Below are positions 4,921-59,504 of a DNA stretch of 64,000 nt, one piece after another. Source of the stretch: Candidatus Pacearchaeota archaeon (GTDB lineage: Archaea; Nanobdellota; Nanobdellia; Pacearchaeales; GW2011-AR1); assembly GCA_017609755.1 (NCBI GenBank), contig JAFCDI010000001.1, forward strand, positions 4,400-68,399. Direction: 5' to 3'. The stretch's first letter is position 1. Each line of letters begins with the position of its first letter. Below the pieces are notes generated by a model. It was not told the origin of the DNA. It worked only from the letters and a program-made list of their open reading frames with translations, and made no database searches. The position numbers were made by a program, and so were the translations under genes.

Positions 4921-5691
4921 TTACCTTCCAAAAAGAATTCTGTCCATTTCTTTCTTAGAAATTTCTCCAGTATTTGATTCTAAAATTTCTCTATTCTCGA
5001 TATCTTCTTCTTTCTTTTTGAAATTCTTAAAATTATTTTCAATTTCTTCTATTTCTTCTTCAGATTCAAATTCTGGCTCTTCTTTCATTTTTCTTAAATC
5101 ATCTATTGTTAAAATTTTAGCCTCATTTCTTTCAAAACTAAGTTTTTTTGGATATTTTTCTGGTTTTATCTCTTTTTCGAATTCTGGACGAATAATTCTT
5201 ATATTCAAAAAATTCTCTAATTTGTTAACTAATTTATAATCATCTTCTGGCAAAATTCCTTGCTCTACCATTTTTATAGCAGCTTCTGATTCTTCAATTT
5301 GTTTTGCAAGTTGAGATTGTGTTAATTTTTTTCTTCTTCTTGCTCTCATAATTGTCCAATGAAAATTATCTATCATCTCTGGACGTAATTCTTTTTTCTT
5401 AGGAGCTTTAGATTCATAATTTCTATCTACAATTTCTCTTAGAGTAGTCTCTTGTAATTTTTTTTCAGGATTTTCTCTTTTTTCAGCTTCTTTTATAGAA
5501 CTAGAAGCTCTTTCATAAAAAGTTTGTTTTCTTTCTGCTTCTTTTAATTGAAAAGTAGTTGGTCTTCTAATAATAGGAATATGCTCGTCTCTAGCACATT
5601 TTTCACAAATTTTCACAACTCCTTCATCAGAAATTGCATCAAAAAGTCTAACTCTATTTATCTTTGCACCACAATAAAAACATTCATCCAT
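4921..5691 (-). CDS. zinc-ribbon plus HTH (XRE-type) protein, archaeal MBF1-like, with an acidic C-terminal tail
   Basis: N-terminal CFYCG...CEKC zinc ribbon. Central TQSQLAKQIEESEAAIKMVEQG helix-turn-helix. Glu-rich C-terminus. Confidence 0.45.
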   Translation of the reverse strand: MDECFYCGAKINRVRLFDAISDEGVVKICEKCARDEHIPIIRRPTTFQLKEAERKQTFYERASSSIKEAEKRENPEKKLQETTLREIVDRNYESKAPKKKELRPEMIDNFHWTIMRARRRKKLTQSQLAKQIEESEAAIKMVEQGILPEDDYKLVNKLENFLNIRIIRPEFEKEIKPEKYPKKLSFERNEAKILTIDDLRKMKEEPEFESEEEIEEIENNFKNFKKKEEDIENREILESNTGEISKKEMDRILFGR

Positions 5692-7713: not shown

Positions 7714-8235
7714 TTAATCTTTTTTAGAAAGATTATTGGATTCTGAACTAACATTAAAATAATCATAAAAATCATCACTTAAACTCAATTCATAAGTGTG
7801 TCCTAATTTCTTTTTTCTAATTAAACTCAAATCAGAGAATTTCTTTATATGGTCATAAGCTTTATTTCCTCTTATTTTAATTATTACTGATTGCTTAATA
7901 GGTTGTTTAAAAGCAATAATAGCCAAAGTTTCTTGTTCTGCTTTTGAAAATTCTGCACTTCCTGTTGCTAATTTATTAATTAAATAAACATAATTTGGTT
8001 TTACATCCATTTTCCACATATTATTCTTCTCAACAATTTCAATTGCAGAATTTTCATCATATCTTTCTCTAATCTTCTCAATAATTCCTGGAATAATTGC
8101 AGGACTTAAATCAGACAATGAGACTAATTCTGGAATTGTTAAAAATCTTCCAGAAATAAAAAAAATCGCTTCTAAAAGCTTAATATATTCCTTTTCTTTA
8201 AAATTTTCAATCTCATCTAGAGTATCGCTTTTCAT
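7714..8235 (-). CDS. scpB: segregation and condensation protein B (ScpB)
   Basis: Two winged-helix repeats. LEAIFFISGRFLTIPEL and ETLAIIAFKQPIKQSVIIKIRG match the ScpB consensus. Confidence 0.65.
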   Translation of the reverse strand: MKSDTLDEIENFKEKEYIKLLEAIFFISGRFLTIPELVSLSDLSPAIIPGIIEKIRERYDENSAIEIVEKNNMWKMDVKPNYVYLINKLATGSAEFSKAEQETLAIIAFKQPIKQSVIIKIRGNKAYDHIKKFSDLSLIRKKKLGHTYELSLSDDFYDYFNVSSESNNLSKKD

Positions 8236-8985: not shown

Positions 8986-10071
8986 CTAAAGCTTGTATCT
9001 TAAAATAGCTCCAATTCCACCCAAATTATAAAATTGCTCTCCTTCTTCAGTTTCTGTTGAAATAATTTCTATTTTTGAACTAATATTTTCTGCCATTTTC
9101 TTAAGTTCTTTTGCAATCTTTTTATCAGTAGATTTAGATAAAAATAAAATCTCTACAGCACCATATTCTAAAGCTTTTTTTGTGTCTTTTTCTTTTAAAG
9201 TTGCTAATTCTGGATTTTCTCCTAATGTCTCAAAAAATCTTTCCATAAGTTTCTTTTCATAAACAATTTCCTGATTAACCAAAATATCTTGAGATTTTTC
9301 AACTAATTCTTTTAAACCAGATTCATTACTATCTCCAATATCTACTCTTCCAATTATTTTTTCTCTTAATTTAGTAGCTAAATATTCATTATCAATAAAT
9401 TCGTCTTTAGTAGGAATGGGTCCTCCAATTAAAATTCCTTTTAATTTAGGCATTTCAAAAAAGATTTTTTTCATTTCATCTGCAATTCTTTTATAAAATT
9501 CTTTTGTTAGTCCTTCTGTAATTCTATGAAATCTTTGACTTGATTGTCCTCCTGCTCTAACTTTACTTGGAACACCTGAACTCATTTTTTGAATAACTTC
9601 TATTCTTTTTCCCTCTAAAACTCCAATTGTTGCTTCCTTTCTATCCATAACCAATAATCCAAAAACCTCAGAAACCTCTAACATTTCTCTCAAAGGTTCT
9701 AAAACAAACTCCTTATCACATCTATATAATCTCATTTTAATTGGCAAAGGAGGTTCTATTTCCCACAATTGTAAATCCTGTTGTCCTTCAACTTTTGAAA
9801 CATTTCCACAAAAAAGAGCAAGTCCATTTTCAGGAGTTTTCTTTAAACTTTTTAAATATCTTACAAGCTTATCTAGAGCATCCCCCACATTTTTTCGAGT
9901 AGAAGTTGATTTAATATTTTTAGCAGTTGATTTCTCTGCTTCTAATTGTCTCTGAACAGCATTTACATCATATCCTTCAGAAATATAAACACTAATTAAT
10001 TCAGTGTGTCTTCCTTTATGCTGTTCTAATTCTTGTAAAATATCTTCAAGTTCATATTTTGTTATGGCCAT
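8986..10071 (-). CDS. prf1: peptide chain release factor aRF1
   Basis: GGQSSQRF (GGQ motif), NIKS-like region (TAKNIKSTSTRKN), 361 aa. Confidence 0.9.
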   Translation of the reverse strand: MAITKYELEDILQELEQHKGRHTELISVYISEGYDVNAVQRQLEAEKSTAKNIKSTSTRKNVGDALDKLVRYLKSLKKTPENGLALFCGNVSKVEGQQDLQLWEIEPPLPIKMRLYRCDKEFVLEPLREMLEVSEVFGLLVMDRKEATIGVLEGKRIEVIQKMSSGVPSKVRAGGQSSQRFHRITEGLTKEFYKRIADEMKKIFFEMPKLKGILIGGPIPTKDEFIDNEYLATKLREKIIGRVDIGDSNESGLKELVEKSQDILVNQEIVYEKKLMERFFETLGENPELATLKEKDTKKALEYGAVEILFLSKSTDKKIAKELKKMAENISSKIEIISTETEEGEQFYNLGGIGAILRYKL

Positions 10072-10153
10072 AAAACAAAAAGCAAAGCCTAGTTTATAAA
10101 ATTAGTTAATTTAACATAGATAAATTATTAAACAAAAAAGAAATTAAATATAA

Positions 10154-15530: not shown

Positions 15531-16921
15531 ATCTTTCTAAACAAAATATCTTCTTTCTCAATCTTCTTTGCACTAAATTGTTTAGAAATTTTTTCAGCAG
15601 AACTAGGAATAAAAGGTAAAAGTAACTCAGAAATTTTTAAAATACTTTCTTTTAATTCATAAAGTGATTTTTTATCTTTTGTTTCCCAAATTTTCTTAGA
15701 CTGAACATATTCATTGCAAATATCAATAAATGCAAATATTTCATTCAAAGCTTTATCAAATTTAAAATCTTCAATTAATCTGTCTATTTTCTTAGCATCT
15801 AATTTTTTAATTAATTTATTTTCACATTTTGTAGTTCCATTTTTTTCAATTAATCCAGCAACTCGACTAACTAAATTTCCTAATTTATTTGCAAGTTCAT
15901 TGTTATGTCTTGCAATTAAAGCCTTTTCAGAAAAATCTCCATCTTCTCCAAAAGGAAAATGTCTTAAGCAAAAATATCTTACACTATCTGCTCCATATTT
16001 TTCTACTAAAATTTTCGGAGAAATTGCATTTCCTAATGATTTTGAGATTTTCTGTCCATTAAAAGTTAAAAAACCATGATTAAAAGTAGTTAAAGGTAAT
16101 TTAATTTCTGCTGATTTCAACATAGCAGGCCAATAAACACAATGAAACCAAGTATTATCTTTTCCAAGTAAATGAAGGTTGGCAGGCCAAAATCTCTCTT
16201 TTCCTTTTTTTCTAGTAGCACTATAATAATTGACTAATGCATCAAACCAAACATAAACTACATGGCTTTTATCTAATGGAAATTCAATTCCCCAATCAAA
16301 ATTTGTTCTTGATATACTTAAATCCTGTAAGCCCTCTTTAACTCTACTAATTATCTCATTTCTTTTTGCTCTAGGCAAAATAAATTCTGGAGATTTTTTA
16401 TATAAATCTAAAAGAAATTTAGAATATTTTGAAAGTCTAAAAAAATAACTTGCTTCTCTTAATTTTTCTAGTTTTTTGTTATGAATTGGGCAAATAAAAT
16501 TTGGAGCTTCTCTTTCTGTATAATAAGCCTCACAATCAGTGCAATAATATCCTTCGTATTCTCCTAAATAAATATCTCCTGCCTTATTACATTTTTCTAT
16601 AAATTTTTTAACAATTTGTTCATGGTCTAAATCAGTTGTTCTAATAAATCTATCTGGAATTATGTTCAAACTTTTCCAAGCTTCTTTAAATTTCTCTGAA
16701 ATCTCATCTACAAATTTCTTAACTGGTGTTCCTGCTTTGTCAGCTGCTCTTTGAACTTTTTTTCCATGCTCGTCTGTTCCAGTTACAAAAAAAACTTCTT
16801 CTCCTTTTAATCTATGCCATCTTGCAAGGACATCAGCTACAATTTTCTGATATGCATGTCCTATATGAGGTTCTGCATTCACATAATCTATTGCAGTTGT
16901 AACATAAAATTTATTTTTCAT
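15527..16921 (-). CDS. metG: methionyl-tRNA synthetase, short form lacking the C-terminal tRNA-binding domain
   Basis: HIGHAY (HIGH), KISKSLGN (KMSKS), zinc knuckle CTDCEAYY...CPIH. Confidence 0.85.
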   Translation of the reverse strand: MKNKFYVTTAIDYVNAEPHIGHAYQKIVADVLARWHRLKGEEVFFVTGTDEHGKKVQRAADKAGTPVKKFVDEISEKFKEAWKSLNIIPDRFIRTTDLDHEQIVKKFIEKCNKAGDIYLGEYEGYYCTDCEAYYTEREAPNFICPIHNKKLEKLREASYFFRLSKYSKFLLDLYKKSPEFILPRAKRNEIISRVKEGLQDLSISRTNFDWGIEFPLDKSHVVYVWFDALVNYYSATRKKGKERFWPANLHLLGKDNTWFHCVYWPAMLKSAEIKLPLTTFNHGFLTFNGQKISKSLGNAISPKILVEKYGADSVRYFCLRHFPFGEDGDFSEKALIARHNNELANKLGNLVSRVAGLIEKNGTTKCENKLIKKLDAKKIDRLIEDFKFDKALNEIFAFIDICNEYVQSKKIWETKDKKSLYELKESILKISELLLPFIPSSAEKISKQFSAKKIEKEDILFRKI

Positions 16922-19504: not shown

Positions 19505-19596
19505 GAGGCTGTAGCTCAGCCTGGTTAGAGCACTACTCTGATAATAAAAGAAAATCAGATAGGTAGGGGTCCACGGTTCAAATCCGTGCAGCCTCA
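19505..19596 (+). tRNA. tRNA-Ile(GAU) with a 17-nt intron at the canonical 37/38 position
   Basis: Acceptor gaggctg/cagcctc, D-stem gctc/gagc, anticodon stem ctact/ggtag, loop ctGATaa, T-arm cacgg-ttcaaat-ccgtg. The intron atcag pairs with the anticodon-loop ctgat, giving a BHB. Confidence 0.8.
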
Positions 19597-30143: not shown

Positions 30144-30236
30144 CGTCCCGAGGAGGACTCGAACCTCCGACACCATGGTAACTGCGATTTTTTATAACCT
30201 AACAGCCATGCGCTCTACCAACTGAGCTATCGGGAC
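30144..30236 (-). tRNA. tRNA-Asn(GUU) with a 20-nt intron at the canonical position
   Basis: On minus strand: acceptor gtcccga/tcgggac, D gctc/gagc, anticodon stem catgg/ccatg, loop ctGTTa + intron ggttataaaaaatcgcagtt + a. Intron gcag pairs with ctgt (BHB). T-arm ggagg-ttcgagt-cctcc. Confidence 0.8.
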
Positions 30237-43080: not shown

Positions 43081-44223
43081 TTATCTCAAAGCTAAAAAAA
43101 CCTCCCTAATTGCTCCTAAAATAAATATTCCAATCAAAAACCAAATTAAAAATTTATTAACAGGAATTTTATATTCTGGTTTTCGGCTTCCTTGTTTTTT
43201 TGCTTTTTTAATCATTAAAAGAACTAAAACAGCAGTTAATCCTCCTGCAACAACACCTCCTATAGAAAGAATGTGAGTAAATGAAAAAAAATCAAAAAAT
43301 CTAATAAATACAAAAATTAAAAGAGGAAGAACTGAAACAAAAAACCAGGCTTTTCTTCTTTCCATTCTTTCATCAAAAGTAAAATTTTCTTCTAGAGCAT
43401 TTCCAAGTGCAAGCCAAGAAGTAAACATTGTAAAAAGTCCTAAAAAAATAAAAAGAGGCCCTAATGCTAAAGTTGATATTTCTGGAGTTTGAATGCCTTT
43501 ATATCCTACAACAATTAAAGTAAAAACAAAATAAAAAATTACGCAAATAAGAGTTCCAGTAAAAAGAGCTTTTTTAACTAGTTTTTCTCTGCCCTTTAAA
43601 ACAATTCTTATTTCTGGAATTGCATGAAAAGACATTAATGCAAACAAAATTACTCCAAAAGGTAGAAAAATATTGCTAAAATTAATATTTATTAAATTAG
43701 AATAATCCACTTTCTTAAAAAAGAAAATAATTATAAAAACAAGTAATCCTAAAACAATTGAAACTCCTATTTTTTCAAATTTTTTCAAATTTTTAAGTCC
43801 TTTCCACAATAATCCAGACATTCCAATTCCAAATAAAATTCCAAACAAAGTTGTATGACTTAAATCTCCAAAAACTAAAAAACTCAAACTTTCTCCTGCA
43901 CCAAGCATATAAGCTAAAATCGCAGAATAAATACCAAAAATAGTTGCAAATTCCATAAATTTTCTTCCTCTTTTTCCAAGATATCTATCTGCATATCCTA
44001 TTAATTGATGCTCTCCTTTAGTTCTCAAACAAATTTCTCCAAAATAAAGATTAACTAAAAGAAGAATTCCTCCAAGCAAAACAATATAAAATACTGCTGC
44101 AAAAAAGCCTGCTTGAGCTGCAACATAAGGAATACCTAGTACTCCTGCTCCAATACAAGTTCCAATAAGTATTGAAATTGCAATTACAAGATTTTTTTTA
44201 TCAGCACCTATTTTTAATTCCAT
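43081..44223 (-). CDS. amino acid transporter (Aa_trans/aromatic amino acid permease-like, about 11 TM)
   Basis: 380 aa polytopic. N-terminal IGAGVLGIPYVAAQAGF motif typical of amino acid/auxin permease-family carriers. Confidence 0.55.
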   Translation of the reverse strand: MELKIGADKKNLVIAISILIGTCIGAGVLGIPYVAAQAGFFAAVFYIVLLGGILLLVNLYFGEICLRTKGEHQLIGYADRYLGKRGRKFMEFATIFGIYSAILAYMLGAGESLSFLVFGDLSHTTLFGILFGIGMSGLLWKGLKNLKKFEKIGVSIVLGLLVFIIIFFFKKVDYSNLININFSNIFLPFGVILFALMSFHAIPEIRIVLKGREKLVKKALFTGTLICVIFYFVFTLIVVGYKGIQTPEISTLALGPLFIFLGLFTMFTSWLALGNALEENFTFDERMERRKAWFFVSVLPLLIFVFIRFFDFFSFTHILSIGGVVAGGLTAVLVLLMIKKAKKQGSRKPEYKIPVNKFLIWFLIGIFILGAIREVFLALR

Positions 44224-44240
44224 TTCAACTTCTTTTTTTA

Positions 44241-44385
44241 TAGGCTCGGAGGGAATTGAACCCTCATCTACAGGGTTTTTCAGCGATTTACACTTTTAAT
44301 CCATCAAGGGAAGGTAGTGCGGTAGGAAACCATTAGGTGTCCTTCGCTCCGAAACCTGTCATCCTATCCATTGAACGACGAGCCT
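44241..44385 (-). tRNA. tRNA-Arg(UCG) with an approximately 73-nt intron at the canonical 37/38 position (145-nt gene)
   Basis: On minus strand: acceptor aggctcg/cgagcct (7 bp), U8, D-stem gttc/ggat, anticodon stem acagg/cctgt (5 bp), loop ttTCGg + intron + c, variable agat, T-arm gaggg-ttcaatt-ccctc. BHB: central helix tttc/gaaa, bulges gg(a) and aac, outer helix agcg/cgct. Confidence 0.65.
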
Positions 44386-44559
44386 TTGAAAAGAGGCAAA
44401 CTTACTTTATTTCAATTGATTTTTCAGATGTAAGTAGAGCCTAAAAATATAATGAAAAAAAGGTTTTTATATCTTATTTATTTTTATCAAAAAACTTAAA
44501 AAAATAAATAAAAGCTAATCAAACCTTAATTTAATAAACCCAAAATAACTTATTTTAAT

Positions 44560-46008
44560 ATGACTAAAAAATCTAAAGAAGGATTAAGTGTAAAAAAACA
44601 AGAAAATTTTAGTGAATGGTTTAGTCAAATTCTAAAAAAGGCAGAATTAATAGATTTAAGATTAGATTTAAAGGGATTTATGGTTTATCGTCCCTTAGCT
44701 GCTCAAATAATTGAAAATATGTTTAAATTATATGAAGAAGAACTTCAAAAAAGAGGGCATGAATTAACTAGAATGCCTATGGTGATTCCAGAAGAAAATC
44801 TAAAAAAAGAGGCATCTCATGTTAAAGGATTTACTCCAGAAGTTTTTTGGTTAAAAGAAATAGGAAATGAAAAATTAGCATTGAGACCAACAAGTGAAAC
44901 ACTTTATACTCCAATGTTTAGTTTATGGATTAATAGTTACAGAGATTTGCCAATGAAACTATATCAAAAAGGTTCTGTTTTTCGTTTTGATACAAAAGCA
45001 ACTCGCCCATTAATCCGTACAAGAGAAATTATTTGGATAGAAACTCATAATGCTTTTGCAACAAAAGAAGAAGCTGAAAAACAGGTTCAAGAAGATATTG
45101 AAATAACAGAAAAAGTAATGCATCAAAAATTTGGAATTCCTTTTTTACCAATGAAAAGACCTTCTTGGGATAAATTTCCAGGAGCAGAATATACAATTGG
45201 TTCAGATGTTTTCATGCCAGATGGAAAATTAATTCAACAACCTTCAACGCATTTAATGGGACAAAAGTTCTCAAAAGTGTTTGAGGCAACCTTCAAAAAC
45301 TTCAATGAAAAAAAAGAATATTTGTGGACTACTGCTTATGGGCCTGCAATATCTAGAATTTTTGCTTCTATAATTGCTACTCATGGAGATGATTCTGGAT
45401 TAATTATTCCCTTTTGCATAGCTCCAACACAAGTAATTATAATTCCTATCTTTAATGCAAAAAACAAAAATGTTCTTCTCAAAGAAGCTAAAAAAATAAA
45501 GAAAAAATTAGAGAGTCTTGGAATAAGAAGTAAAATAGATGATAGTGAAAAAAGACCTGGAGAAAAATATCATATTTGGGAATTAAAAGGAGTTCCTTTT
45601 AGAATAGAAATTGGAGAAAAAGAATTAAATTCAAAAAAAGTAACTCTATATACTAGAGATTTAGGAAAAAAAGAATTCTTGAAAACTAAAGAAATTTCAA
45701 AATTAAAAAAACTTGGAAAAATTTTCGATGAAAGAATAAAAGAAAAAGCAGAAGAAATAATGAATGGAAGAATTTTAAATGCTAAAACAAAAGAAGAATT
45801 AAAAAAAATAATAAAAAACAAAAAAATTGCCAGAATTAATTTTTGTTCCACAAAAGAATCCGGAGAAAAATGTGCACAAATTATTGAAAAAGAAATTAAT
45901 GCAGAAATTAGAGGAAATCTAGCAAATAAAAAAGAAAAAGCAACAGGAAAATGTATTATTTGTGGAAAATCTGCAAAAGAAGTAGTCTATGTGGGAAAAA
46001 GCTACTAA
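44560..46008 (+). CDS. proS: prolyl-tRNA synthetase (archaeal/eukaryotic type)
   Basis: Class II motifs (FRFDTKATRPLIRTREIIWIETH), C-terminal zinc-binding CIICGK extension. 482 aa. Confidence 0.85.
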   Translation: MTKKSKEGLSVKKQENFSEWFSQILKKAELIDLRLDLKGFMVYRPLAAQIIENMFKLYEEELQKRGHELTRMPMVIPEENLKKEASHVKGFTPEVFWLKEIGNEKLALRPTSETLYTPMFSLWINSYRDLPMKLYQKGSVFRFDTKATRPLIRTREIIWIETHNAFATKEEAEKQVQEDIEITEKVMHQKFGIPFLPMKRPSWDKFPGAEYTIGSDVFMPDGKLIQQPSTHLMGQKFSKVFEATFKNFNEKKEYLWTTAYGPAISRIFASIIATHGDDSGLIIPFCIAPTQVIIIPIFNAKNKNVLLKEAKKIKKKLESLGIRSKIDDSEKRPGEKYHIWELKGVPFRIEIGEKELNSKKVTLYTRDLGKKEFLKTKEISKLKKLGKIFDERIKEKAEEIMNGRILNAKTKEELKKIIKNKKIARINFCSTKESGEKCAQIIEKEINAEIRGNLANKKEKATGKCIICGKSAKEVVYVGKSY

Positions 46009-55456: not shown

Positions 55457-55508
55457 TTATTTCTCCTCCTTTTAAAAATATTAGACTAAACTAGTATTTA
55501 ATTCTTTT

Positions 55509-56504
55509 TTATAATCCATATCTTCTTTGAAGAATTCTAAAACTAAAATGTTGAAAAAAATTAAGTCCTCCTCTTTGCTCTATTCTTCTTCGCATTTCTT
55601 TTAAAATTTCTGAATCTCTATACTCTCTCATATATTTCAAAGAAATTCCTTCAGAAGCTTTAATAATCTTAGGATAAGAAGTTAATTTTTCTCCTCCCAA
55701 ATAAATATTTTCATTATCTGCAAGAATAGAGGGCCCAGTAGCCTCCACAAAACAATAACTAGTATTTAAAAATCCATATTCTTCAGGACATTTTATTCCA
55801 ACTGAATCATGATTTTCTTTTTCATGATAAAAAAACACTGTTTCATATCCTATTTCTCTAAGAAGAAAAACAAGCAATTCTGATTTAGAAGCACAAGTCC
55901 CTTGTTCATTGTATAAAACTTCATAAGGATATCTCGAATAATTAATCGAATATCCTCCTACAGAAAGAGATTCATTTGAATATCCAAATTCAATATTTTG
56001 AACAAGACTTATAGCTATTCGAGCCTGATTTTCTGTATTTTTTTCTAAATTTTGTATTTTAATAACTAAAGGCATTAATAGAATTCTCTGATTTTCTTCA
56101 TTTATTTTTCTTAGTTTAAAATCATCTTTTTTAGGTTCTTCTCCATTTGAATAAAAAAGATAATCAGGAGAATAAAAAAGATAATTCGCCATTTTTTCAT
56201 AAACTATCATAGAAATATTAAATTCTTTTCCAGAGAAAAAGTAAGTTAAATTTATTTCTTTAGGATTTTCTTGATAGGGAGAAATACATAAATTTCCTTG
56301 AATTTCAGTTAAATTTGGACATCCGCAAATAGATGCTTTCTCAATTAAAATTCCATTCTCGTCGCAAAAATAAGGAGAATTTTTAGAACACTCTCCAATT
56401 TTTGTTCCATCTCCACAAGAATTAAAGCTATCAAAAAATCCAGCACTTCCAAAATTAATTAAAAGAATAAACAGAAAAATTAAGAAATATTTTTTAAAAT
56501 TCAT
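55509..56504 (-). CDS. secreted Cys-rich protein with a possible transglutaminase-like (Cys-His-Asp) core
   Basis: N-terminal signal/TM. QGTCASKSELLVFLLREIGYETVFF...HDSVGI resembles a transglutaminase-like catalytic core. Weak. Confidence 0.3.
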   Translation of the reverse strand: MNFKKYFLIFLFILLINFGSAGFFDSFNSCGDGTKIGECSKNSPYFCDENGILIEKASICGCPNLTEIQGNLCISPYQENPKEINLTYFFSGKEFNISMIVYEKMANYLFYSPDYLFYSNGEEPKKDDFKLRKINEENQRILLMPLVIKIQNLEKNTENQARIAISLVQNIEFGYSNESLSVGGYSINYSRYPYEVLYNEQGTCASKSELLVFLLREIGYETVFFYHEKENHDSVGIKCPEEYGFLNTSYCFVEATGPSILADNENIYLGGEKLTSYPKIIKASEGISLKYMREYRDSEILKEMRRRIEQRGGLNFFQHFSFRILQRRYGL

Positions 56505-58964: not shown

Positions 58965-59504
58965 TTGTCTTATACTAATAATAGCATGAAAAAGATAATT
59001 GCTCATTTAACTGGACAAATTGTTTCAAGTAATACTTCTGAGGCAAAATTTCTTCATAAAAAAAGTAGTTTCGGAGAAATAATAGATGATAAAATCCAGT
59101 ATTCTTTAGCAGAAACTCTATATTTATTAGAAAAAGGAAAAATGGAGATTAATTTCCGTTCAAAAAAACTCTCAACAAAAGAACTACTAAATAAATTTAG
59201 AAGAATTGATAAAAGAATACAACTAAAATATCCTGTATTTAGAAATTTAAGAGAAAAAGGTTATTTAGTAAAAACCGCTTTAAAATTTGGAGCAGATTTT
59301 AGAGTTTATGAAAAAGGAGCAAAAATAGGAAAACAGCATGCAAAATGGATTGTGTTTGTTGATTCTGAGACAAATAAAATCACTTGGCATGAATTTTCTG
59401 CAAAAAATAGAGTTGCTCATTCAACAAGAAAAAATTTACTTCTAGCAATAGTAGACGAAGAAAACAGCATTACTTATTATGAAATTAGATGGTTAAAGCC
59501 TTAG
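58965..59504 (+). CDS. endA: tRNA-splicing endonuclease (EndA, homotetramer-type about 180 aa)
   Basis: LKFGADFRVYEKG...HAKWIVFV...RVAHSTRKNLLLAIV carries the catalytic Tyr/His/Lys region of the archaeal splicing endonuclease. Confidence 0.8.
   Translation: MSYTNNSMKKIIAHLTGQIVSSNTSEAKFLHKKSSFGEIIDDKIQYSLAETLYLLEKGKMEINFRSKKLSTKELLNKFRRIDKRIQLKYPVFRNLREKGYLVKTALKFGADFRVYEKGAKIGKQHAKWIVFVDSETNKITWHEFSAKNRVAHSTRKNLLLAIVDEENSITYYEIRWLKP

Follow-up and report, generated by a model that had tools for sequence, protein, structure and literature searches.

Introduction

Canonical archaeal tRNA genes have an intron at 37/38 that is bounded by a bulge-helix-bulge (BHB) motif, excised by the tRNA-splicing endonuclease EndA and followed by exon joining through RtcB; such genes were reportedly catalogued by Marck and Grosjean in 2003 and are reviewed in PMC4090602. 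Here we compare with these and related systems a gene on a 64,000-nt stretch of contig JAFCDI010000001.1 (positions 4,400 to 68,399 of the forward strand; GenBank assembly GCA_017609755.1, Candidatus Pacearchaeota archaeon), hereafter the window, whose own numbering is used throughout. We consider it very likely that a Pacearchaeota-like DPANN archaeon carries here, at 44385..44241 of the minus strand, a functional tRNA-Arg(UCG) gene, interrupted at the canonical site between tRNA positions 37 and 38 by a 73-nt archaeal BHB intron. Archaeal tRNA introns measure 11-129 nt, with medians of 12-25 nt, and of ~65 nt among the tRNA-Trp introns that bear box C/D RNAs (PMC4090602). Our locus resembles the canonical genes in its intron site, in a 4-bp helix that uses bases 34-35, in a 3-nt 3' bulge, an h' helix, an encoded EndA and an intron length within 11-129 nt. 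It differs in that 73 nt lies far above the 12-25 nt medians, as an earlier reading of the sequence without database searches (the sequence-only reading) had remarked in calling the intron unusually long; in that its 5' bulge may comprise 2 nt, one fewer than usual; and in that a three-helix intron fold is conserved across lineages whose ProRS proteins are 50% identical.

In Haloferax volcanii and other euryarchaea, tRNA-Trp(CCA) likewise has a long (~65-105 nt), phylogenetically conserved intron, which houses a box C/D guide RNA, is placed at 37/38 and is confined to one isoacceptor. In contrast, the tRNA-Arg intron has no C box, no D' box and no conserved C' box, shows no guide complementarity to the tRNAs of the window, and carries a CUGA explained by the helices at its splice sites; the isoacceptor (Arg UCG) and the phylum (DPANN) also differ. 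Within DPANN, disrupted tRNA genes are familiar from the split tRNAs of Nanoarchaeum and the non-canonical introns of ARMAN, and predicted tRNA sets are incomplete (PMC5829648, PMC3239211). The present locus shares with these a DPANN genome and a tRNA that default predictors overlook, which would leave an apparent gap in the set, but it is neither split, permuted nor multi-intron, its intron position is canonical, and its EndA resembles the plain M. jannaschii homotetramer type, with no obvious insertion in the aligned region.

No paper describing this tRNA-Arg(UCG) intron was found in our literature search. Its splicing mechanism is textbook, and its length, although great, is within the known range; two features are mildly unusual, the exon-level conservation of the intron and the patchiness of its presence at one syntenic site. 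The practical value lies in annotation: DPANN genomes have been reported with tRNA sets that look incomplete (PMC5829648), overlooked tRNAs such as this one contribute to that picture, and a miss here could be misread as the absence of a decoder for CGA/CGG.

Identification of the tRNA-Arg(UCG) gene

The gene spans 145 nt, with the following features.

44349..44385, minus strand: exon 1, tRNA positions 1-37 (ARAGORN -i, covariance model R1, junction from intronless orthologues)
44276..44348, minus strand: intron between positions 37 and 38, 73 nt, AGCGAAGGACACCUAAUGGUUUCCUACCGCACUACCUUCCCUUGAUGGAUUAAAAGUGUAAAUCGCUGAAAAA (absent from intronless orthologues; intron covariance model R2)
44241..44275, minus strand: exon 2, tRNA positions 38-73 (sequence, ARAGORN, R1)
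44385-44379 and 44248-44242, minus strand: acceptor stem, AGGCUCG with CGAGCCU (pairing in sequence)
44352-44350, minus strand: anticodon UCG, positions 34-36 (sequence; ARAGORN calls)
Exon 2, minus strand: T arm GAGGG-UUCAAUU-CCCUC (sequence; matches consensus)
44241, minus strand: discriminator A (sequence)

Read 5' to 3' in tRNA sense from 44385, exon 1 (AGGCUCG UC GUUC AAUGGAUA GGAU G ACAGG UUUCGG) comprises the 5' strand of the acceptor stem, the D arm, the 5' strand of the anticodon stem and U32 U33 U34 C35 G36 G37. After the intron, exon 2 (C CCUGU AGAU GAGGG UUCAAUU CCCUC CGAGCCU A) contributes C38, the 3' strand of the anticodon stem, a 4-nt variable loop, the T arm, the 3' strand of the acceptor stem and the discriminator A; CCA is not encoded. 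The exons are ~51% G+C, against 26.6% for the window. Positions A20 and C35 are arginine identity elements, established for E. coli ArgRS. The D loop AAUGGAUA yields G18 G19 A20, and the matching A is invariant across the orthologue alignment; with U34 C35 G36 as anticodon, plus A20 and C35, the product would thus have the hallmarks of an arginine isoacceptor, and the UCG anticodon recurs in 13/13 sequence-distinct orthologues. Features of this kind are far beyond chance.

Default ARAGORN called three tRNAs on the window, with tRNA-Arg(UCG) not among them. With introns allowed, the same program reported tRNA-Arg(tcg) at c[44241,44385] with a 73-nt intron. Independent support came from covariance model R1, which was built from six intronless orthologues from other genomes and does not contain the window sequence: under default filters it matched 44241-44385(-) at 73.1 bits (E=1.2e-20), end to end over model positions 1-72, the next-best matches in the window being tRNA-Met (36.6 bits) and tRNA-Ile (17.5 bits). 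With filters off the match breaks into one half for each exon, 145 nt being too long for the length band of the model. Splicing in silico between G37 and C38 gives a 72-mer that default ARAGORN calls tRNA-Arg(tcg), with a cloverleaf energy of -24.5 kcal/mol. The sequence-only reading had settled on this isotype after setting aside proline, and the intron-enabled call, R1, the call on the spliced product and the anticodon of every orthologue all agree with it. Its interval, 44241-44385, was also right, as were the acceptor pairing (aggctcg/cgagcct), the T arm and the expectation that the exons would fold under covariance-model scoring, its strings being given in tRNA sense and the feature lying on the minus strand.

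Run with relaxed settings and introns, ARAGORN made four extra calls (7727-7933, 9935-10085, 15699-15889 and 55472-55588, with 'introns' of 25-117 nt). These are probably false positives: Rfam and R1 lend them no support, and 55472-55588 overlaps open reading frames.

Splice junction and intron states at the syntenic site

A tRNA-Arg(UCG) gene stands at the equivalent place beside an amino-acid permease gene in 13 sequence-distinct relatives (L001, L003, L005, L009, L017, L019, L021, L034, L036-L039 and L041), with ProRS adjoining or close by in 11 of the 13. Every related contig fetched that reaches the site has the tRNA directly upstream of the permease gene, and ProRS adjoining or close by where the contig is long enough; L040 stops short of the site. 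Intron states among the loci, some represented by more than one sequence, are listed below.

No intron: L003/L004, L005/L006, L034, L036, L037, L038
Homologous intron, 68-80 nt: L001/L002/L025, L009/L022, L017/L035, L019, L020, L021, L027 (a contig end cuts the 5' exon of L027)
Different intron, 56 nt: L041
Different intron, 35 nt: L039

The series found at one syntenic site, from a Y-shaped intron of 68-80 nt through 56 nt and 35 nt to no intron, constitutes a compact natural record of archaeal tRNA introns kept, shortened and precisely lost. The tRNA-Arg(UCG) genes of L039 (4923-5031) and L041 (4923-5050) both have their intron at 37/38, with clean 3-nt bulges on both sides; the L039 intron looks like a truncated form without hairpin P2 of the fold described below, and that of L041 is barely alignable with the homologous introns.

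The intronless copies all read GGUUUCGG/CCC (here and below a slash marks a junction), with an anticodon loop of UUUCGGC, and the intron-bearing L001, once its intron is removed, is nearly identical to the intronless L003. The junction is placed at G37/C38, and the intron at 44348-44276, because only that excision reproduces the intronless GGUUUCGG/CCC. ARAGORN's own placement at 38/39 is off by one, predicting a loop of UUUCGGA as against the UUUCGGC of the intronless orthologues. An intron of about 73 nt between positions 37 and 38, as the sequence-only reading proposed, is thus supported in its length by intron-enabled ARAGORN and in its junction by six intronless orthologues. Further homologues were sought by pattern scans of genome and metagenome collections, with the 12+12 bases around the splice sites as query; most matches were bacterial and due to chance, the real ones being L009, L017, L019-L022, L025 and L027.

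The bulge-helix-bulge motif and the splicing endonuclease

The elements that would direct splicing are as follows, with intron positions counted from its 5' end as i1 and backward from its 3' end as -1.

44351..44354, minus strand: 5' strand of the BHB central helix, U32 U33 U34 C35 (pairs with intron G(-6) A(-5) A(-4) A(-3))
44278..44281, minus strand: 3' strand of the central helix, GAAA, intron -6 to -3 (sequence)
44348..44350, minus strand: 5' splice-site bulge, G36 G37/A(i1) (sequence)
44275..44277, minus strand: 3' splice-site bulge, A(-2) A(-1)/C38, 3 nt (sequence; junction from intronless orthologues)
58965-59504, plus strand: EndA, tRNA-splicing endonuclease, 179 aa (Pfam PF02778 and PF01974, the N and C domains)

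As a rule, the 4-bp central helix of a BHB includes the first two anticodon bases (PMC4090602), and the U32-C35/GAAA helix, which uses anticodon bases 34-35, fits that rule. Equivalent helices are formed by UUUC/GAAA in L039 and by UUUC/GGAA in L041. Beyond the 5' bulge lies the h' helix, (A)GCGA/UCGC(U); both pairings named in the sequence-only reading, UUUC with GAAA and AGCG with CGCU, are therefore present. An alternative register, pairing U32-34 with A(-1..-3), emerged from RNAalifold and minimum-free-energy folding and is energetically equal, but leaves the splice sites outside the bulges; we prefer the BHB register because it places the splice sites in bulges and also includes the C35:G(-6) pair.

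The open reading frame at 58965-59504, which the sequence-only reading had taken for EndA, proves to carry both tRNA_int_endo domains, and its best match in the PDB is 1A79, the homotetrameric EndA of M. jannaschii (E=1.2e-34, near-gapless). The catalytic Y, H and K align with those of 1A79 (frvYe..kqHa..trKn), and no insertion is evident across the aligned region. The enzyme is accordingly predicted to be of the single-subunit, homotetramer (alpha4) type. Homotetramer-type EndA has been described as BHB-strict, whereas DPANN versions with an extra loop accompany more disrupted tRNA genes (PMC5829648).

Taken together, these elements suggest a conventional route to the mature tRNA. In the folded primary transcript, U32-C35 would pair with GAAA near the 3' end of the intron, thereby placing both splice sites in flanking bulges, GG/A and AA/C. 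The homotetramer-type EndA would cut after G37 and before C38, and an RtcB-type ligase would join the exons into a 72-nt tRNA with the anticodon loop UUUCGGC, the spliced junction reading GGUUUCGG/CCCUGU, with CCA added after exon joining. The excised intron would probably be circularised, with a junction reading CUGAAAAA/AGCGAAGG. The Y-shaped fold may serve to hold the distant splice sites together and to keep a long insert from disturbing the cloverleaf; such a scaffold role seems to us the most economical.

Two further tRNA genes in the window have an intron at 37/38, and by hand both show this central helix between positions 32-35 and the intron. The gene for tRNA-Ile(GAU), at 19505-19596 (+), has a 17-nt intron at this site and a central helix of CUGA/UCAG; its h' helix is nearly absent, a single U-A pair closing an A-rich loop. 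At 30144-30236 (-) Rfam reports a tRNA at 60 bits, ARAGORN returns 'tRNA-??? (tt)', and inspection by hand indicates tRNA-Asn(GUU) with a ~20-nt intron at 37/38, C32 U33 G34 U35 pairing with G C A G.

Fold and conservation of the intron

When each of the eight homologous introns was folded alone with RNAfold, one common Y shape resulted, composed of three helices, P1, P2 and P3, given here in window coordinates.

44344..44348 and 44282..44286, minus strand: P1, the h' helix, AGCGA (intron nt 1-5) with UCGCU (RNAfold of eight introns)
44324..44343, minus strand: hairpin P2, AGGAcACC-UAAU-GGUuUCCU (in 8/8 homologous introns)
44290..44320, minus strand: hairpin P3, GCACU-ACCU-UCC-CUUGAU-GGA-UUAAA-AGUGU (per-sequence RNAfold)

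Several substitutions keep the helices. In P1, C-G becomes U-A in L009 and G-C becomes G-U in L001, L017 and L027. In P2, where 100% of cells are paired, C-G becomes U-A in L001 and a C.U mismatch becomes A-U in L009. The base of P3 reads CCACU/AGUGG in L009 (G.U to C-G), and L017 has a re-written stem of 8-10 bp, GCACAUCU/AGAUGUGU. In the model-fitted alignment 92% of cells pair, compared with 26-45% when partners are slid; this alignment (A5) mis-registers P3 of L009, L017 and L020, such that its covariation counts understate the per-sequence folds. The predicted Y fold is well supported by recurrence and modestly by statistics.

Identity to the window copy was as follows.

L019: exons 97%, intron 93%
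L021: exons 97%, intron 95%
L001: exons 77%, intron 84%
L017: exons 97%, intron 78%
L020: exons 85%, intron 76%
L009: exons 73%, intron 76%

In these lineages the intron is conserved about as much as the tRNA body. Flanking intergenic DNA is unalignable among the relatives, a promoter-like block excepted, and L009 has retained its intron while its ProRS and permease are 50% and 46% identical to those of the window. Within the intron the CACUACCUUCC block is near-invariant, and its pairing partner varies. Intron covariance model R2 matches exactly 44276-44348 at 98.8 bits, which follows by construction, the window sequence being in the model. No second copy was found with R2 in the window or in 20 loci (next best 21.8 bits, E~0.07), on which ground a mobile element was rejected, and no Rfam family matches the intron. 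The intron is nonetheless dispensable, since it has been lost, truncated or replaced in other lineages.

Weighing the alternatives

Several observations count against a functional gene that is spliced at a canonical BHB. Rfam RF00005 gives no tRNA-Arg in the window at the gathering threshold or at E<=10, in slices of 801 nt and 176 nt; only the T arm is reported, as a tmRNA fragment. In the minimum-free-energy and alifold structures A(i1) pairs with U(-7), leaving a 5' bulge of 2 nt rather than the strict 3 nt, and the EndA aligns with the strict M. jannaschii enzyme without an evident insertion; the wording of the sequence-only reading, 'near-canonical', is accurate, given that pairing of A(i1) would cut the 5' bulge to 2 nt. 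Covariation within the intron fold is modest, with two double-sided changes, equalled by 51/500 shuffles, in a small sample of eight introns, five of them from close relatives. Conservation of the intron at exon level exceeds the needs of a pure scaffold. The invariance of the 24 splice-site bases among the homologues found by pattern is due to ascertainment, since these bases served as the query, and carries no evidential weight. Finally, splicing itself, in both cleavage and ligation, and circularisation of the intron are steps that we infer from the sequence. The Rfam result we attribute to a filter-dependent false negative that is no evidence against the gene, because the near-identical L019 (3089-3234), two exon bases from the window copy, scores 45.7 bits; the family likewise accepts intron-bearing L001, L009, L017, L019, L020 and L021 at 38-51 bits and the intronless orthologues at 54-65 bits. 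The prediction that this tRNA would be easy to miss has nonetheless been borne out, since default ARAGORN and Rfam both pass over it.

The silence of Rfam on the window copy, two G-U pairs in the D stem, and a 57-nt insert between the gene and the conserved promoter-like block might all be expected of a decaying pseudogene or a chance cloverleaf, with the real tRNA-Arg(UCG) elsewhere in the genome. We find this very improbable given the 73.1-bit R1 match, exons 97% identical to those of L019 and L021, both of which Rfam accepts, and synteny with the tRNA-Arg(UCG) of 13 sequence-distinct relatives; moreover, stem differences among the orthologues are compensatory, with double changes at 14 pairs of the consensus fold (A1), and the identical sequence occurs in L007 and L008, metagenome assemblies independent of each other. 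From UGAUGG (44301-44306) and CUGA (44280-44283) it had been suggested that a box C/D small RNA guiding 2'-O-methylation might lie within the intron, on the pattern of tRNA-Trp in Haloferax and other Euryarchaeota. Both strings are present, 17 nt apart, and tRNA-Trp introns that bear C/D RNAs have a median length of ~65 nt (PMC4090602), not far from 73 nt, but the reading of the strings as boxes did not survive comparison. A C box (RUGAUGA) occurs in 0/8 homologous introns and a D' box in none; UGAUGR is found in 1/8, the window copy alone, where relatives have UUAUGG, UUAGGG, AAUUGG, UUUGGA or UUGAGU, and in the window it runs from the end of P3's apical loop through the 3' strand of the stem which that loop caps. 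CUGA does recur in 7/8 introns, L027 having UUGA (G-C to G-U in h'), yet its bases are engaged in the splice-site helices, the first two in h' and the last two in the BHB central helix. Archaeal C/D guides usually have a spacing of 12 nt, shorter than the 17 nt seen here. In a search that covered the window's four tRNAs, the longest complementarity of the intron is 5-6 nt; the 12 nt upstream of CUGA have no target in a window tRNA, their reverse complement matching the intron's own antisense strand alone; and among Rfam C/D families only sR28 is reported within the intron, and its 9.4 bits (gathering score 39) are noise. A nested guide of this type is therefore scarcely credible to us. Other structured RNAs were considered and rejected, largely by hand: a k-turn at the intron termini or in GCG-AAG-GA, where the opposite strand beside the stem is AU or AA and not GA, a GA.AG arrangement of CUGA with the intron 5' end being impossible; an H/ACA guide in P3, which has an internal loop of only 4+5 nt (3+1 in L009), a 3-bp upper stem lacking a k-turn, and no conserved ACA box; and a hammerhead-like three-way junction, a 12.9-bit noise match on the opposite strand only.

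A further proposal is compatible with the gene being functional and canonically spliced, and adds to it: the ~70-nt Y-shaped intron may itself be functional, whether by persisting as a circular RNA, by binding protein, or by regulating or chaperoning tRNA-Arg(UCG) maturation in cis, and purifying selection would then have kept it in certain lineages of Pacearchaeota and Nanoarchaeota. Intron identities that keep pace with those of the exons (L001, L009 and L019, above), persistence of the intron in L009 despite its diverged ProRS and permease, the unalignable flanking DNA, the Y fold common to 8/8 introns, and a CACUACCUUCC block that is near-invariant while its partner varies all favor such a role. 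Against it stand the precise loss of the intron in at least six orthologues (L003, L005, L034, L036, L037 and L038), the 35-nt form in L039 and the 56-nt replacement in L041, which mark it as dispensable, as well as the lack of an Rfam match or a second copy in the window or loci, and identities that partly reflect ascertainment. On balance we regard a function for the intron as unlikely, though by no means negligible. More doubtful is its specific form, a non-coding RNA new to Pacearchaeota and Nanoarchaeota, maintained by selection, that might act as a stable circular RNA or as a protein- or RNA-binding element around CACUACCUUCC; if true, archaeal tRNA introns with their own function would number two, the tRNA-Trp C/D intron being the first.

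Flanking genes and upstream region

The surroundings of the tRNA-Arg(UCG) gene comprise the following features.

43081-44223, minus strand: amino-acid permease (flanks the tRNA; ATG 17 nt downstream of it)
44560-46008, plus strand: ProRS (flanks the tRNA)
44386..44442, minus strand: 57-nt lineage-specific stretch upstream of the tRNA (comparison of upstream regions)
44443..44468, minus strand: promoter-like A/T block, aaaaacctttttttcattatattttt (conserved in L001, L017, L019 and L021)

The A/T block is a putative promoter, judged from its conservation: it lies directly upstream of the tRNA in L001, L017, L019 and L021, and 57 nt away from it in the window. The intervening stretch opens with AGGCUC, a duplicate of tRNA nt 1-6 that resembles a target-site duplication; it has no counterpart in the relatives and no other copy in the window or loci, and probably belongs to the 5' leader. 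The hairpin that it can form is weak, at -8.5 kcal/mol. On the other side, the 17 nt between the tRNA 3' end and the permease ATG, on the same strand, hold no T-rich stretch (window 44223-44241), and this tight arrangement is kept in L001, L005, L019, L021, L034 and L038. Because it is conserved, co-transcription of tRNA-Arg(UCG) with the permease is suggested. Homologues of the ProRS are labelled Candidatus Pacearchaeota, Nanoarchaeota or Nanobdellota, which marks the source of the window as a DPANN archaeon; the organism occurs in ERZ27248454 and JGI 3300033148. In L036 the full ProRS gene is closely followed downstream by a separate fragment (4929-5105) of 59 residues that matches the ProRS C terminus at 75% identity.

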